This document shows, piece after piece, positions 26,550 through 30,465 of a stretch of DNA of 64,000 nucleotides. The stretch lies in the sequence record OR621298, one strand, 5' to 3'. The stretch's first letter is position 1; each line of letters begins with the position of its first letter. The notes under the pieces were generated by a model. It had not been told where the DNA came from. It saw only the letters and a program-made list of their open reading frames with translations, and did not search any database. This DNA comes from Escherichia phage vB_EcoD-Elw. Position numbers and translations under genes: made by a program.

Positions 26550-26992
26550 TTAAAATTAAATTAACTCATCCAGATTGTATGCCTAAGATCGGTTCCGAAG
26601 ATGCCGCAGGTATGGATCTGCGAGCATTCTTTGGTACTAACCCTGCTGCAGATTTACGTGCTATTGCACCAGGCAAATCCTTAATGATTGACACCGGTGT
26701 CGCGGTGGAAATTCCGCGAGGCTGGTTCGGTTTGGTAGTTCCACGTAGTTCTTTAGGTAAACGCCATCTGATGATTGCAAATACCGCAGGGGTGATCGAC
26801 TCAGACTATCGTGGGACTATTAAGATGAACCTGTTCAACTACGGTTCTGAAATTCAAACTCTGGAGAATTTTGAAAGACTTTGTCAGCTAGTAGTAGTAC
26901 CACACTACTCAACTCATAATTTTGAAATCGTTGACGAATTAGGGGAGACTGATCGTGGGGAAGGCGGATTTGGAAGTTCGGGAAGCAAATAA
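26546..26992 (+). CDS. dut: dUTPase
   Basis: 148 aa; dUTPase motifs AAGMDL, RSSLG, GVIDSDYRG and C-terminal GGFGSSG. Confidence 0.85.
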   Translation: MIKIKLTHPDCMPKIGSEDAAGMDLRAFFGTNPAADLRAIAPGKSLMIDTGVAVEIPRGWFGLVVPRSSLGKRHLMIANTAGVIDSDYRGTIKMNLFNYGSEIQTLENFERLCQLVVVPHYSTHNFEIVDELGETDRGEGGFGSSGSK

Positions 26993-27218
26993 TTTTACTG
27001 ATCCTAATATGATCGGTGTTGATACTAGTATGTCAACTTATCAGATTAAAACTGCTGAACCAGAAACGTTGGTGCTAAAAACAGATAAAGAAGGTAATGT
27101 TACTTTCTGGGACCCTGAAGGTTTTGTAGAGCTTTGTACTAATACGGATAATGAGCAGTTAAAATTACTACTAACTATTTATAATCTTGGTGTTATAGAA
27201 GGTTGTAGAAGCAAGTAA
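26955..27218 (+). CDS. hypothetical small protein
   Basis: 87-aa ORF from a GTG with AGGGGA RBS, overlapping the dUTPase 3' end. Confidence 0.35.
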   Translation: MGKADLEVREANNFTDPNMIGVDTSMSTYQIKTAEPETLVLKTDKEGNVTFWDPEGFVELCTNTDNEQLKLLLTIYNLGVIEGCRSK

Positions 27219-27226
27219 TAGAAAAA

Positions 27227-27258
27227 CCCCGGTGGACAAAATCCACCGGGGTTTCTTT
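27227..27258. terminator. bidirectional rho-independent terminator between early and late modules
   Basis: ccccggtgga-caaaat-tccaccgggg stem with A-tract upstream and T-tract downstream, between convergent genes. Confidence 0.8.
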
Positions 27259-27274
27259 GTACTATGTATATGTA

Positions 27275-30043
27275 CTATGAGTTATCTGGCTTAATAAGCT
27301 CGCTAACAAGTTTCTTCAGTTCGGTTAATTCTTGCTCAAGTTTGTTAACTTTATCAGCTTGATAACGAAATGCGCAAGCTAGATCTGCCATAATGACGTT
27401 GTTATCAAGCGCTAATGTGTCATCCGCTTTGTCAACAACAATTTGACGATCTACATACTCTTCACCCTCATCGTTAACACCTATAACATCTGCAAAGATG
27501 TCCCCGCCAGGAATTAATTTTACATATTCCGGATCTATTTTTAGCAGGTCTTGGGCTATTAAGCCGAACCGCTGAATGTCGCTGCCGTTGTATTTAAACA
27601 TTGTTGGCAGCCACTGCATAACTCGGTCATAGCTTTCTTTTCCGTCCGTATAGATGATATCATGTTTTAAGTCTCTGTCAGAGGAAGCAGCCTTTTGAAA
27701 AACGTAGTTACCAGTGGAGGACCATGTTGTTATATCATTTGACGCTGGTTGAAACTGGAAGTTGCAGAAAAACTCACCATCGCCACGAAGCCTTAACGAG
27801 CAAAAAGGCCAATTATTATTACCTTGTGCAATAAGACCCCATGTTGCGCGAAGTGGATATCCACCAGTGGATTGTGTACCCCATGAAAGGCCAGGTGCCC
27901 ATCCACCATCATTGTTAGGAATAATCTCGCCCCAAACAAGAGCATTACCCCAATAGTTAGGATCATCCCATCCCATTTGTTTGGTTTTGCCAGTGTATTG
28001 AGCAGAATGCGTTCTGCCGTCAGGGTAAAACTTGTGCATATAGGACTGTATCCCTGCTTGATACAACTCTATTCCAAAAGATTCAACGTGTGTGTCGCCT
28101 CTTCTGATTAAACCAGCGATAGCGTAATCGTCATACCAGTTGTAACGACTTACACCAGTCCATGTGTTTATTGGTGGATTCATGATTGAAAATAGTTGTG
28201 ACGCATTGCGTTCATTCCCATCTGCATAAATACCAGCCCCAGGAGCTAAGGAAATACTTTTCGCTCCTGAAAAAGTACCATTTTCATTAAACTGATAATA
28301 CTGTGATGCCCCATTATGAAATACGCCTATTGTATGCTTTCCTACGCCTACTTGAGTCTCAAAATAAGACTGAGAAGAACCAATATCTTCGCCTTGTGTA
28401 TTCTTTAATTTTGAATGATATATACCTGCATTTGCAGTAGTTGCATTTTCCGTTTCGTTTTCAACATTAAGACTTAGGAACTTTGGTGCATGTTTCTCAC
28501 CAAGCCCTATATTATTTCTGATACCATTCGCATCCTTAGCACCTGTACCACCAAATTGAATACCTAGTGGTATCCATTGATTGGTTGTAGCATCATAAAC
28601 GCCCCAATGATCCCCCTCATCTGGAATGGTTAGATACTTGTTTTTATTTGGAGAATATAAAACTGTTTCCCCAGAATTCTGAAACAGCCTATCAACTCCT
28701 AAATTATATCTAGCACCTTCAGGAGTATCTGCTCCTGTACCACCAGCCGCAGTTGATAATGGAAGAGTTTCCCATGATATTCCGTCACCTTTTGTATCTC
28801 TCTGAAGTACAATAAGACCATCATCTCTAATAACAAATCTATATAATCTATTATGTGAGTATAGAAAAGTATGAACCCCATCTTGTACAAGTGAGTCTAT
28901 AAGGAGTGTCTGACGAGAAGCATTGATATTTGACAGATCTGAGAGATTATTTTCTTTTAGTAACGATTTACTAATGATACCTTCAGCTTTTCCAGCAGCC
29001 ACTTCTGCGCGTCCGGCATCTGTAAATGCACTTTGTGCGCTACCAGCAGCATTGCCAGCTTGTTGTCCTGCTTCGATAGCGCTATTACTTGCTTGTGCAG
29101 CTGAAGCAGCAGCAGCATCTTTTAGCACTGTAGTTTCTGTTACTGCGCTATCTTTAATACTCTGTGTATCTATTTTTAATTGCTCAACATCAGATTTTAA
29201 AGCCGTTGTTTCACTTATAGTGCTGTCTTTAATTAGTTGAGTATCTGTTTTTAATTGCTCAACATCTGATTTTAAGCCTTGAATAGTAGTTACTGATTGG
29301 CTAGCTGAGGCTGCGGAATGGGCTGCATTAGTCTCACTAGTTTTTGCATTAGTCTCACTAGTTTTAGCATTTGTTTCACTAGTTTTAGCATTTGTTTCCG
29401 AGGTTTTTGCAGCAGATGCTGATGCGCCGGCTTGTGCAGAGAATATCTCCGCCTCATCTCTATAACCTTTAGAATCCGAAGCAGAAGCAGCAGCATTAGT
29501 TTCACTAGATTTTGCCTTATCTTCACTAGCTTTTGCTGCAATAGCAGAAGCAGCAGCATTAGTTTCACTAGATTTTGCCTTATCTTCACTAGCTTTTGCA
29601 TTAGTCTCACTAGTTTTTGCATTAGTCTCACTAGTTTTAGCATTTGTTTCACTAGCCTTTGCCTTATCTTCACTAGTTTTTGCGTTAGTTTCTGATACTT
29701 TAGCTGCTGCGGCTGATTCTGCAGATCTATCAGCTGATGCAGCAGATTGAGTAGCAGATGTAGCGGACTGAGCGGCAGAGGCTTCAGAAGCTCCAGCAGA
29801 AATAGCAGCTTCCTGTTCAGAGTTCTTAGCGTTAAGCTCCGAGGTTTTAGCCGCTATCTCAGAATCTTTTGCAGCAGCAGCAGACTTAGCTGCTGCCTCA
29901 ATAGAAGATACTAATTCACTTGCAGTAATAGAGCTAATAGAATTACCTAGAGTTACTGTATATCTAGGAAACTTACTAGCAGTAGCTTTAGTATCATCAA
30001 TATTTAATATTTGTTGTACAATAATTTTAGTAGTTACTGCCAT
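27275..30043 (-). CDS. ltf: L-shaped tail fibre with C-terminal intramolecular chaperone domain
   Basis: 922 aa; N-terminal Ala/Ser-rich TSETNAK repeats; C-terminal chaperone-like segment DRDLKHDIIYTDGKESYDRVMQWLP...GLIAQDL. Confidence 0.7.
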   Translation of the reverse strand: MAVTTKIIVQQILNIDDTKATASKFPRYTVTLGNSISSITASELVSSIEAAAKSAAAAKDSEIAAKTSELNAKNSEQEAAISAGASEASAAQSATSATQSAASADRSAESAAAAKVSETNAKTSEDKAKASETNAKTSETNAKTSETNAKASEDKAKSSETNAAASAIAAKASEDKAKSSETNAAASASDSKGYRDEAEIFSAQAGASASAAKTSETNAKTSETNAKTSETNAKTSETNAAHSAASASQSVTTIQGLKSDVEQLKTDTQLIKDSTISETTALKSDVEQLKIDTQSIKDSAVTETTVLKDAAAASAAQASNSAIEAGQQAGNAAGSAQSAFTDAGRAEVAAGKAEGIISKSLLKENNLSDLSNINASRQTLLIDSLVQDGVHTFLYSHNRLYRFVIRDDGLIVLQRDTKGDGISWETLPLSTAAGGTGADTPEGARYNLGVDRLFQNSGETVLYSPNKNKYLTIPDEGDHWGVYDATTNQWIPLGIQFGGTGAKDANGIRNNIGLGEKHAPKFLSLNVENETENATTANAGIYHSKLKNTQGEDIGSSQSYFETQVGVGKHTIGVFHNGASQYYQFNENGTFSGAKSISLAPGAGIYADGNERNASQLFSIMNPPINTWTGVSRYNWYDDYAIAGLIRRGDTHVESFGIELYQAGIQSYMHKFYPDGRTHSAQYTGKTKQMGWDDPNYWGNALVWGEIIPNNDGGWAPGLSWGTQSTGGYPLRATWGLIAQGNNNWPFCSLRLRGDGEFFCNFQFQPASNDITTWSSTGNYVFQKAASSDRDLKHDIIYTDGKESYDRVMQWLPTMFKYNGSDIQRFGLIAQDLLKIDPEYVKLIPGGDIFADVIGVNDEGEEYVDRQIVVDKADDTLALDNNVIMADLACAFRYQADKVNKLEQELTELKKLVSELIKPDNS
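29290..29700. repeat. tandem in-frame repeats inside the tail-fibre gene
   Basis: Repeated ~24-nt units (tttgcattagtctcactagtttt variants) encoding (K/A)(T/S)SETNAK. Confidence 0.8.
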
Positions 30044-30465
30044 TATTTAGTTACCCCATCACTGATAAATACTTTACCCTCCATTATACGAAAGGAGCTA
30101 ATTGCAGATCCTATAACATCTCTAGTCATAATTATATCATAGTATCCTGCGAATCGCTGACGAGGGTTATATTTATCTCTATCTTTAGATGCTTTAGCCC
30201 CTATATTTTCCACAGATTCTACTGGCAAACTTATAGCTACAGCCCCTTGAGCAGCATCAATAATTTTAGTAGTAAAAGATGCCAATATCTCCGCATTCTC
30301 ATCTAGACTATTTTTTACAGTACCTCTTAGAGAATATCCAGTTAAGTTAACTGGGGTATCTGTAGACGGGTAAGTACTATCATCAACGTCTAAAAACTGC
30401 ATCATTAAACCATATGGTACATTTTCGTCTATTACTAAGTCTATAACTCTATTTTCAGTACTCAT
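30043..30465 (-). CDS. tail tip collar protein (p132-like)
   Basis: 140 aa; position between fibre and pb4-like gene matches T5 order as recalled. Confidence 0.5.

Follow-up and report, generated by a model that had tools for sequence, protein, structure and literature searches.

The ltf gene of Escherichia phage vB_EcoD-Elw likely encodes a homotrimeric lateral tail fibre precursor, with a heptad-based shaft that varies by whole units and a tip that is predicted to be processed by a Peptidase_S74 domain. This reading was built on the observed open reading frame (ORF), its domain content and repeat structure, copy-number differences among relatives, concerted evolution of the repeat copies and the sharing of modules with other fibres. 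The gene occupies positions 27275..30043 of the window (the whole 64,000-nucleotide stretch of DNA that was analysed) on the minus strand, starts with ATG, specifies 922 aa and ends with a stop codon at 27275-27277.

The ltf product was found to be 100% identical to the "putative tail tip protein" (P0001) of vB_EcoD-Elw, a Tequintavirus for which a literature search returned nothing relevant, and annotated orthologues were identified in MM-1, T5_ev212, OSYSP and VEc33. PHROG tail-fibre families were matched, including the 1396-aa T5 pb1 profile (over aa 3-198), and the N-terminal 210 aa matched DT57C LtfA. These matches and the synteny agree with the original prediction, made from the DNA alone, which had called the gene a tail fibre and had correctly judged it to be shorter than that of T5 (922 aa compared to 1396 aa for pb1). 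By sequence homology, the 922-aa product is a side tail fibre of the L-shaped, lateral type of a T5-like coliphage and a homologue of pb1/LtfA.

The genomic neighbourhood was that of a T5-like tail-tip operon (pb3-pb4-p132-ltf). Directly upstream of ltf lies the gene for the 140-aa LtfC/p132 collar protein (30043..30465, minus strand; Pfam LtfC, E=1.8e-14), the TAA stop of which shares 1 nt with the ltf ATG (TAATG; junction sequence CTAAATAATGGCAGT). LtfC and PB4 domains were detected by Pfam in the ORFs adjoining ltf, and a 949-aa ORF farther along was taken to be pb3 based on its length and its position, which matches that of T5 D16 "tail protein Pb3" and MM-1 "central tail fiber J". This gene order is common to T5, MM-1, T5_ev212, OSYSP and VEc33. 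A bidirectional intrinsic terminator was predicted where ltf converges with the dut-side genes (27222..27256, not assigned to either strand), in the form of a GC-rich hairpin that has a U-tract on each strand; the terminator scan gave two hits compared to 0.2 expected, and T5 has an annotated bidirectional terminator in the same position. Three further ORFs, at 29290..29673 (minus strand), 29432..29695 (plus strand) and 28923..29240 (plus strand), were rejected as frame artefacts of the repeats with translations that are low-complexity echoes, and no ORF inside or antisense to the repeat region is annotated in MM-1, T5_ev212, OSYSP or VEc33. All components of ltf are of known kinds, and the gene is an ordinary representative of a family that is well studied.

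The N-terminal anchor of the fibre (aa 1-39; 29927..30043, minus strand) is homologous to residues 1-40 of LtfA/pb1 and near-identical to those of DT57C LtfA (phmmer against 8hqz_d, E=3e-35 over aa 1-210), and is thereby predicted to insert into the LtfC/p132 collar. Two short strands were modelled in the anchor by AF2 (5-9 and 28-32), as likewise described at the N-terminus of DT57C LtfA by cryo-EM (PMC10713586). The anchor is followed by coiled-coil shaft segment 1 (aa 40-187; 29483..29926, minus strand), which has an unbroken xSExxAK heptad register and an AF2 helix at 41-187, and by segment 2 (aa 196-359; 28967..29458, minus strand), which was modelled as a helix over its full length with pLDDT up to 94. 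A putative hinge separates the two (aa 188-195, ASDSKGYR; 29459..29482, minus strand), where the AF2 helix is broken with pLDDT below 50 over 186-197 and where the only Gly/Tyr-containing break in the heptad pattern is found. Thirty heptads share a single register, with Ser at position 2 in 28 and Ala at position 6 in 24 of them, and Pro is absent from aa 40-355. The predicted helices, lack of proline, small residues at a/d positions and heptad periodicity all fit a trimeric coiled coil that starts at about residue 40. In DT57C LtfA, the helix from T40 forms a three-helix coiled coil, and the trimer can be seen only where this helix begins (PMC10713586); T40 is conserved in the 922-aa fibre, the predicted helical heptad run continues this helix, and a trimeric coiled coil may extend over the whole shaft. 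A one-residue deletion (A198) in the shaft of DT57C LtfA abolishes adsorption (PMC4728585), which fits a register constraint on the shaft. The similar SExxAK heptads of Klebsiella depolymerases (7VZ3, 7VYV and 7LZJ) were rejected as structural proof, as the cryo-EM map does not show the helix-bundle region of the depolymerase (PMC10581125).

Tandem repeats were found within 29290-29700, where the original prediction had placed them, in the N-terminal third of the fibre (aa ~115-251). The prediction held for the ORF, repeat location, length variation and chaperone domain but failed for the size of the repeat unit, which it had given as ~24 nt. The true unit is 21 nt (7 aa, xSExxAK), with TRF periods of 21, 42 and 63. 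Self-identity at a lag of 21 nt over aa 109-248 was 0.594 compared to 0.381 +/- 0.023 (maximum 0.456) in 2000 codon shuffles, and the ~24-nt period was rejected because self-identity at a lag of 24 nt (0.298) was at background. The units form two heptad arrays on the minus strand with the non-repeat hinge between them. Array 1 (aa 116-185; 29489..29698) consists of ten 21-nt units of the types (T/A/V/S)SETNA(K/A), xSEDKAK and ASAIAAK, was reported by TRF as a 63-nt unit in 1.9 copies of 100% identity, and includes most of a perfect 57-nt duplication (29480-29536 and 29543-29599) that extends 9 nt beyond the low-coordinate end of the array. Array 2 (aa 214-241; 29321..29404) consists of four TSETNA(K/A) units (4.2 copies at 29324-29411 by TRF), and 59 nt of this array (29324-29382) are identical to 29597-29655 of array 1 at a spacing of 273 nt, or 13 heptads. 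Overall, exact direct repeats of 59, 57 and 24 nt were spaced by 273, 63, 21 and 252 nt, each of them a multiple of 21, and periodicity was exact at 21 nt over 45 nt and at 63 nt over a 120-nt stretch. Farther along the shaft, two 25-aa (75-nt) repeats of the form KSDVEQLKxDTQxIKDSxxxETTxL were detected (aa 258-307; 29110..29272, minus strand; repeat search family D5, 72% identity).

Repeat number was found to differ between relatives, as anticipated by the original prediction that shaft length may vary. The conserved SVTTIQGLK anchor lies beyond the arrays, and across 58 clusters of related proteins its position was 165, 200, 214, 235, 242, 245, 249, 251, 252 or 256, with a mode at 249 in 26 clusters; in one IMG/VR locus it was 151. 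Offsets from this mode were -98, -84, -49, -35, -14, -7 and +7, with only -4, +2 and +3 not multiples of 7; the corresponding array indels were 7, 14, 35, 49, 84 and 98 aa. The 25-aa repeat unit and an 11-aa unit (AVSETQAIKDA) were also gained or lost, with indels of 11, 25 and 36 aa in OSYSP, VEc33, P0027, P0070 and P0097. Two pairs of near-identical genes differed in copy number. In the first, 3 of 2802 nt and exactly one 21-nt unit separated VEc33 from a contig of the E. coli assembly GCA_012558145.2. In the second, 5 of 2622 nt and a 147-nt deletion with a 32-nt direct repeat at its ends separated MM-1 from a Logan contig of ERR11439706; this deletion is known from an automated k=31 assembly in which the 32-nt repeat could have been short-circuited. 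The IMG/VR scan returned mostly the same isolate genomes again, and no relevant paper on variation of the repeats in T5-like fibres was found in the literature searched.

The repeat copies within a genome evolve in concert among relatives. Paralogous 57-nt copies were 100% (vB_EcoD-Elw), 96.5% and 89.5% identical within genomes compared to 79-93% for orthologues between lineages, and lineage-specific bases were common to both copies at 6 of 13 variable sites.

These results bear on whether the repeats are dynamic. The heptads could instead be a static scaffold, repetitive only as an Ala/Ser-cored coiled coil demands, with copy-number differences that are rare neutral accidents and leave adsorption and host range unaffected, in which case the locus would not be expandable in a functional sense. 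This account is possible, although we are inclined to doubt it. It agrees with a dominant modal array length and with an ltf length of exactly 2769 nt in all nine closest complete genomes (93-95% nucleotide identity), and the presence of the AKTSETN motif in T5 pb1 and other fibres, together with matches to depolymerase helix-bundle regions, suggests a generic structural solution. It does not account well for homogenisation of the DNA beyond protein constraint, as the perfect 57-nt duplicate and 59-nt exact repeat include synonymous sites, nor for indels between genes only 3-5 substitutions apart, which imply that in those lineages the indels are, per event, at least as frequent as point changes. 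The single length in the nine closest isolates nevertheless argues against very high rates of length change; with the mode in 26 of 58 clusters, it points to an array that is mostly stable, with no evidence for a high mutation rate and with turnover that is evolutionary and not demonstrably rapid.

We consider it rather unlikely that the repetitive shaft DNA serves mainly as a homology bridge for swaps of receptor-binding modules between unrelated phages, with copy-number change as a by-product. Several module boundaries fit this account, as similarity to other fibre classes starts or ends within the shaft or at its edge (~aa 198, ~250 and ~354). Residues 1-354 are common to T5-like fibres without S74, and shaft segment 2 is 75-84% identical to that of T5-like fibres bearing different tips. 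About aa 198-922 are common to Seuratvirus fibres with a PF08400 N-terminus; in the Seuratvirus alignment, the repeat part is low-complexity and close identity begins from the SVTTIQGLK anchor at about aa 250. Three siphovirus lineages also share the same tip, with aa identities of 83-96%. By contrast, the near-isogenic indel pairs are pure intra-array events in which the tip was not exchanged, and the junctions have been placed with a precision no better than tens of residues. A bridging role is, moreover, compatible with a processed fibre that varies by whole heptads.

A contingency locus, in which high-frequency slippage would yield mixed shaft lengths per lysate as bet-hedging, is very unlikely. 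The perfect tandem units (45 nt at a 21-nt period and the 120-nt stretch at a 63-nt period) and the single-unit difference between otherwise almost identical genes would suit such a locus, and different copy number in near-identical genes, a feature of these loci, was seen in the two pairs described above. However, the 2-4 identical tandem units are far below those of classical contingency loci, independently isolated close relatives have one length, and the observed indels were all in frame with no switching of expression or reading frame found; with a unit that is a multiple of 3, on/off switching is not possible. That the copy-number differences are short-read assembly artefacts in repeats is more improbable still: an 873-aa variant does come from a Logan (k=31) contig with a repeat-flanked deletion, but the arrays are shorter than typical reads, fibre length varies among many phage genomes that were finished independently (VEc33, 940 aa; OSYSP, 969 aa; others, 695 to 986 aa), and the indels are in frame and in heptad register (anchor offsets of -4, +2 and +3 aside).

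Distal to the coiled coil, aa 360-519 (28487..28966, minus strand) were modelled by AF2 as beta-rich domains of the distal shaft (pLDDT ~75-85). This region has two GGTGA...AR.NLG motifs (aa 434-438 and 498-502), the columns of which are nearly invariant in alignment A3. A putative receptor-binding tip was assigned to aa 520-787 (27683..28486, minus strand) by conservation of the cassette and by Foldseek. The cassette was detected at aa identities of at least 80% in 33 phage records, from Tequintavirus, Hanrivervirus (slyngel, 95.6%) and Seuratvirus (SD04, 82.7%). The best Foldseek match was the T5 pb1 tip plus intramolecular chaperone (IMC; 4uw8) with a probability of 1.0 and E=1.6e-4 but a low TM-score, and no match at E<=0.01 was obtained when the tip/IMC was compared to T5 pb1 in the PDB by direct sequence search. 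A monomer AF2 model of the tip matched only generic beta-sheet folds (such as porins and beta-propellers), and for this reason no fold is named. Lateral fibres of the T5 type bind surface polysaccharide reversibly and speed adsorption, and the tip of the 922-aa fibre probably binds a surface glycan. The literature searched, including papers on OSYSP and other relatives, named no receptor for this tip type.

The C-terminus (aa 788-922; 27278..27682, minus strand) was assigned as a Peptidase_S74 IMC, in accord with the chaperone domain that had been proposed there. Pfam PF13884 was matched over aa 788-842 (34.3 bits compared to a gathering cut-off of 22; E=3e-8), S788 and K793 of SSDRDLKHD, at the domain boundary, were each at least 90% conserved across 35 homologues, and the model had the IMC fold, in which a mixed alpha/beta body leads into a long C-terminal helix. 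Fold matches likewise supported the assignment. When the C-terminal 156 aa were used as query, only DT57C LtfA (E=0.0047) and a sub-threshold S16 gp37 were recovered. From the conserved Ser/Lys dyad, the domain is predicted to autocleave at Ser787|Ser788 with Lys793 as general base.

Taken together, the preferred reading of ltf as a processed fibre with a heptad shaft would operate as follows. Residues 1-39 would be threaded through the tail-tip collar made of LtfC/p132, and residues 40-359 would assemble as an extended three-stranded alpha-helical coiled coil, about 47 nm in length and with an Ala/Ser core, that is built from xSExxAK heptads in two segments with a hinge at 188-195. Beta-rich distal domains would follow and then the receptor-binding tip (520-787). 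The S74 domain (788-922) would chaperone folding of the trimer and then cut itself off at Ser787|Ser788 to leave a 787-aa mature fibre. Slippage in replication or homologous recombination between near-identical 21-nt units is the probable route of the indels, and, since exact repeats of 24-59 nt are always separated by a multiple of 21 nt, whole heptads would be gained or lost. Such events would leave the reading frame and the register of the coiled coil intact and would change shaft length by ~1 nm per heptad, gene conversion would homogenise the copies, and the low-complexity shaft sequence may double as a crossover zone for fibre-tip swaps between phage families. Shaft length may have an effect on fitness. 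A stronger proposal, that the arrays are an evolvable length rheostat in which ~1-nm units, gained and lost in register through exact repeats kept uniform by gene conversion, set the reach of a glycan-binding tip relative to the pb5 tail tip, matched to O-antigen or capsule thickness, with selection maintaining the repetitiveness of the DNA, appears improbable.

The result mainly confirms a correct annotation for a protein that GenBank already lists, with a vague product name. Heptad turnover, homogenised paralogous repeats and register-keeping spacings mark safe sites for engineering of shaft length or grafting of tips in T5-like therapeutic phages, which is of modest practical value, and a long-read check of the repeat stretch is advisable in assemblies of T5-like ltf genes. 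If it is true that shaft length affects adsorption across surface-glycan layers, shaft length would provide a simple axis of host-range evolution beside tip swapping.

Among known systems, T5 pb1 (Ltf; 4UW7/4UW8) is encoded in the same place, in convergent orientation to dut and after the p132/LtfC, pb4 and pb3 genes. It has a homologous N-terminal anchor followed by AKTSETN-type heptads, as in the 922-aa fibre, and a C-terminal S74 domain with a Ser...Lys(+5) dyad (Ser1264 and Lys1269) that is cleaved at Thr1263|Ser1264. DT57C LtfA (cryo-EM, 8HQZ) is almost identical to the 922-aa fibre over the first ~100 aa and weakly similar in the IMC, but its distal parts are unrelated and the DT57C fibre is branched with a second protein, LtfB, whereas the vB_EcoD-Elw locus has a single ltf gene. 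The S74 domain resembles endosialidase-type IMCs (Peptidase_S74: K1F endoNF, 3GW6; phi29 gp12, 3GUD; S16 gp37; MyRF ICA, 7DC3), from which it differs in its location on a fibre tip compared to the beta-helical tailspike of endosialidase-type systems and in that autoprocessing is here only predicted. The coiled-coil length of T4 fibritin (gpwac) is said to vary among T4-type phages, a finding attributed to Letarov et al. 2005. The segmented coiled coil of fibritin and the proximal coiled coil of Ur-lambda Stf, the latter modelled as residues 102-393 (PMC12617516), are likewise long trimeric alpha-helical shafts with a distal binding module, but their attachment domains and tips differ from those of the 922-aa fibre.

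The lateral (L-shaped) tail fibre gene, ltf, was found as an ATG-to-stop frame of 922 aa at 27275..30043 on the minus strand, in agreement with the original prediction, whose length of ~1400 aa for the T5 fibre also matches T5 pb1 (1396 aa). Its product matches the "putative tail tip protein" of Escherichia phage vB_EcoD-Elw, encoded on a 118-kb contig, at 100% identity. The best nucleotide matches were Tequintavirus genomes (93-95% identity), in which the orthologues are annotated as tail fibre and adjoin a "collar tail protein for L-shaped tail fibre attachment". The corresponding collar gene (LtfC/p132, 140 aa, 30043-30465) was detected directly upstream of ltf as one intact ORF, the stop codon of which shares one base with the ltf start (TAATG at 30041-30045); this overlap suggests that collar and fibre may be translationally coupled. 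By contrast, the collar gene of the T5 reference NC_005859 (locus L005, 8056-8480) is split into two short ORFs, T5.135 and T5.136, which Ayala et al. 2023 put down to an erroneous frameshift in the T5 sequence. Upstream past LtfC/p132 are pb4 (four PB4 Pfam domains) and then a 949-aa pb3-like ORF. At the other end, a 13-16-bp GC-rich hairpin with flanking T-runs on each strand (27222-27256) starts 19 nt past the end of ltf, where ltf and the dut-side genes converge. This candidate bidirectional terminator scored positive in both directions (both strands), and a bidirectional terminator is annotated at the equivalent site of T5. A GTG-initiated 87-aa ORF (26955-27218, plus strand) was also observed, overlapping the dUTPase gene at that gene's 3' end; it matches phrog_5592 (E=1e-45), has orthologues with PF24084/DUF7369 and has a conserved T5 counterpart, T5.132.

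The first 100 residues of the fibre are almost identical to DT57C LtfA (8hqz_d, E=3e-35 across aa 1-210). By cryo-EM, the N-terminus of DT57C LtfA forms two short strands that augment the LtfC sheets, followed by a three-helix coiled coil from a long helix starting at T40 (PMC10713586). T40 is kept in the vB_EcoD-Elw fibre, and an AF2 monomer model of aa 1-360 (built with a 34-sequence alignment) predicted strands at 5-9 and 28-32 together with two helices, 41-187 and 196-359. By analogy with pb1/LtfA, the fibre would attach to the collar and a trimeric coiled coil would run along the whole shaft. Proline is absent from aa 40-355, and aa 46-255 comprise 30 successive heptads in one register with Ser at position 2 in 28 and Ala at position 6 in 24, the 3-4 spacing expected for coiled-coil core positions. 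If one continuous coiled coil, the shaft would span ~47 nm at ~1.04 nm per heptad. The sole break across ~320 residues of predicted helix is a low-confidence segment, ASDSKGYR (aa 188-195, 29459-29482), where the fibre may kink or hinge. In P0097 and L008, relatives with a loss of 84-98 aa, this break also appears to be gone, apparently because arrays 1 and 2 (described below) recombined with each other.

The repeats of the shaft had been described as ~24-nt units; instead, a period of 21 nt was found by both lag self-identity and Tandem Repeats Finder. Self-identity over aa 109-248 was 0.594 at lag 21, compared to 0.381 +/- 0.023 (maximum 0.456) for 2000 codon shuffles, while lags 18 and 24 were at background (0.28-0.30). 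Tandem Repeats Finder placed 4.2 copies of period 21 at 29324-29411 (array 2, 29321-29404), periods of 21/42/63 at 29493-29692 (array 1, 29489-29698), and 1.9 copies of a 63-nt unit at 100% identity at 29480-29599. All exact direct repeats in this region are spaced by multiples of 21, namely those of 59 nt (29324-29382 / 29597-29655, 273 nt apart), 57 nt (29480-29536 / 29543-29599, 63 nt apart) and two of 24 nt (21 and 252 nt apart). The distal half of the shaft carries a second repeat system, which includes a unit of 75 nt, or 25 aa (KSDVEQLKxDTQxIKDS..ETTxL), at about 29110-29272.

Repeat number was gauged in 58 related protein clusters by the position of a conserved SVTTIQGLK anchor 3' of the arrays. 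The anchor was at 165, 200, 214, 235, 242, 245, 249 (26 clusters, the mode), 251, 252 (18 clusters) or 256, and at 151 in one IMG/VR locus, which bears out the proposed variation in repeat number. Seven of the 10 distinct offsets from the mode are divisible by 7 (-98, -84, -49, -35, -14, -7 and +7), and the binomial chance of at least 7 of 10 with random lengths is ~1e-4, a rough guide as offsets are not phylogenetically independent. In alignment A2, gaps fall inside arrays 1 and 2, and the second helical segment holds 0-3 copies of an 11-aa unit (AVSETQAIKDA) and has the 25-aa unit present or absent by relative, giving indels of 11, 25 and 36 aa (relatives L003, L004, P0027, P0070 and P0097). 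Units of 7, 11 and 25 (=7+7+11) residues would all fit coiled-coil periodicities. Two near-isogenic pairs were the most informative. VEc33 and a contig of E. coli assembly GCA_012558145.2 have 3 differences in 2802 nt and are otherwise set apart by precisely one 21-nt unit. Between MM-1 and Logan contig ERR11439706 there are 5 differences in 2622 nt and a deletion of 147 nt (7 heptads), the ends of which fall in a 32-nt direct repeat; for this second pair an assembly caveat applies, as a loop with 32-nt repeats at its borders could be skipped in a k=31 graph. The heptads thus display register-preserving copy-number polymorphism. The repeat geometry suggests that repeats phased at 21 nt give rise to the indels, by slippage or by homologous recombination with each other. 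The ltf gene is 2769 nt in all nine closest complete genomes, which argues against a fast clock and for array turnover visible on evolutionary scales. Within the library searched, no publication addressing changes in heptad number among T5-like fibres turned up.

Homogenization was evident between the 57-nt copies, which encode AKASEDKAKxSETNAAASA. The two copies are 100% identical within vB_EcoD-Elw, 96.5% within MM-1 and T5_ev212, and 89.5% within OSYSP and VEc33, whereas orthologous copies across these lineages are only 79-93% identical. Both copies have lineage-specific bases in common at 6 of 13 variable sites; for example, codons 158/179 are TCT/TCT in vB_EcoD-Elw, GCT/GCT in MM-1 and ATC/ATC in OSYSP. 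Such a pattern is the hallmark of gene conversion or of re-duplication inside the array.

Beyond the helical region are a beta-rich distal shaft with two GGTGA...AR.NLG motifs (aa 360-519), a putative binding tip (aa 520-787, 27683-28486) and the S74 domain (aa 788-922). T5-like fibres with other tips and no S74 match the vB_EcoD-Elw fibre over aa 1-354 at 75-84% identity and then diverge, while Seuratvirus (~60-kb) fibres with a PF08400 N-terminus align with it over roughly aa 198-922 (81-84%). In 33 phage records the tip (aa 520-790) reaches >=80% aa identity, and it spans Tequintavirus, Seuratvirus and Hanrivervirus (Drexlerviridae) genomes at 83-96%, including Salmonella phage slyngel (95.6%). 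Thus, the shaft also marks a zone of fibre-module exchange. Judged by sequence, the tip cassette is widespread and uncharacterized; its fold was not resolved in the AF2 monomer model, and by analogy it would bind glycan. Records labelled Campylobacter phage (E6, A143, C4 and others) or Aeromonas phage SD04 also carry this tip; their host labels look doubtful for an enterobacterial-type fibre.

The predicted C-terminal intramolecular chaperone was supported by a Peptidase_S74 match (PF13884, aa 788-842), a Ser/Lys dyad and fold matches. The boundary sequence AAS-SDRDLKHD contains S788 and K793, each >=90% conserved in 35 homologues and spaced Ser/Lys(+5) as are Ser1264/Lys1269 of T5, where cleavage falls between Thr1263 and Ser1264 and processing is blocked by S1264A (PMC4690869). 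Foldseek with an AF2 model of aa 356-922 (pLDDT 73) returned 4uw8 (T5 pb1 tip plus chaperone; prob 1.0, E=1.6e-4) and 7dc3 (MyRF ICA; prob 1.0). By analogy, autocleavage would leave a mature fibre of 787 aa.

T5 pb1 likewise has AKTSETN heptads (aa ~50-205), and 4-18 xSExxA(K/A) units occur in many T5-like fibres; the TSETNAK motif is, on this distribution, a family trait and not peculiar to vB_EcoD-Elw. Heptad-number variation is an incremental comparative point and no new kind of system, and the vB_EcoD-Elw fibre, with its S74 chaperone, belongs to the T5 pb1 / DT57C LtfA family.
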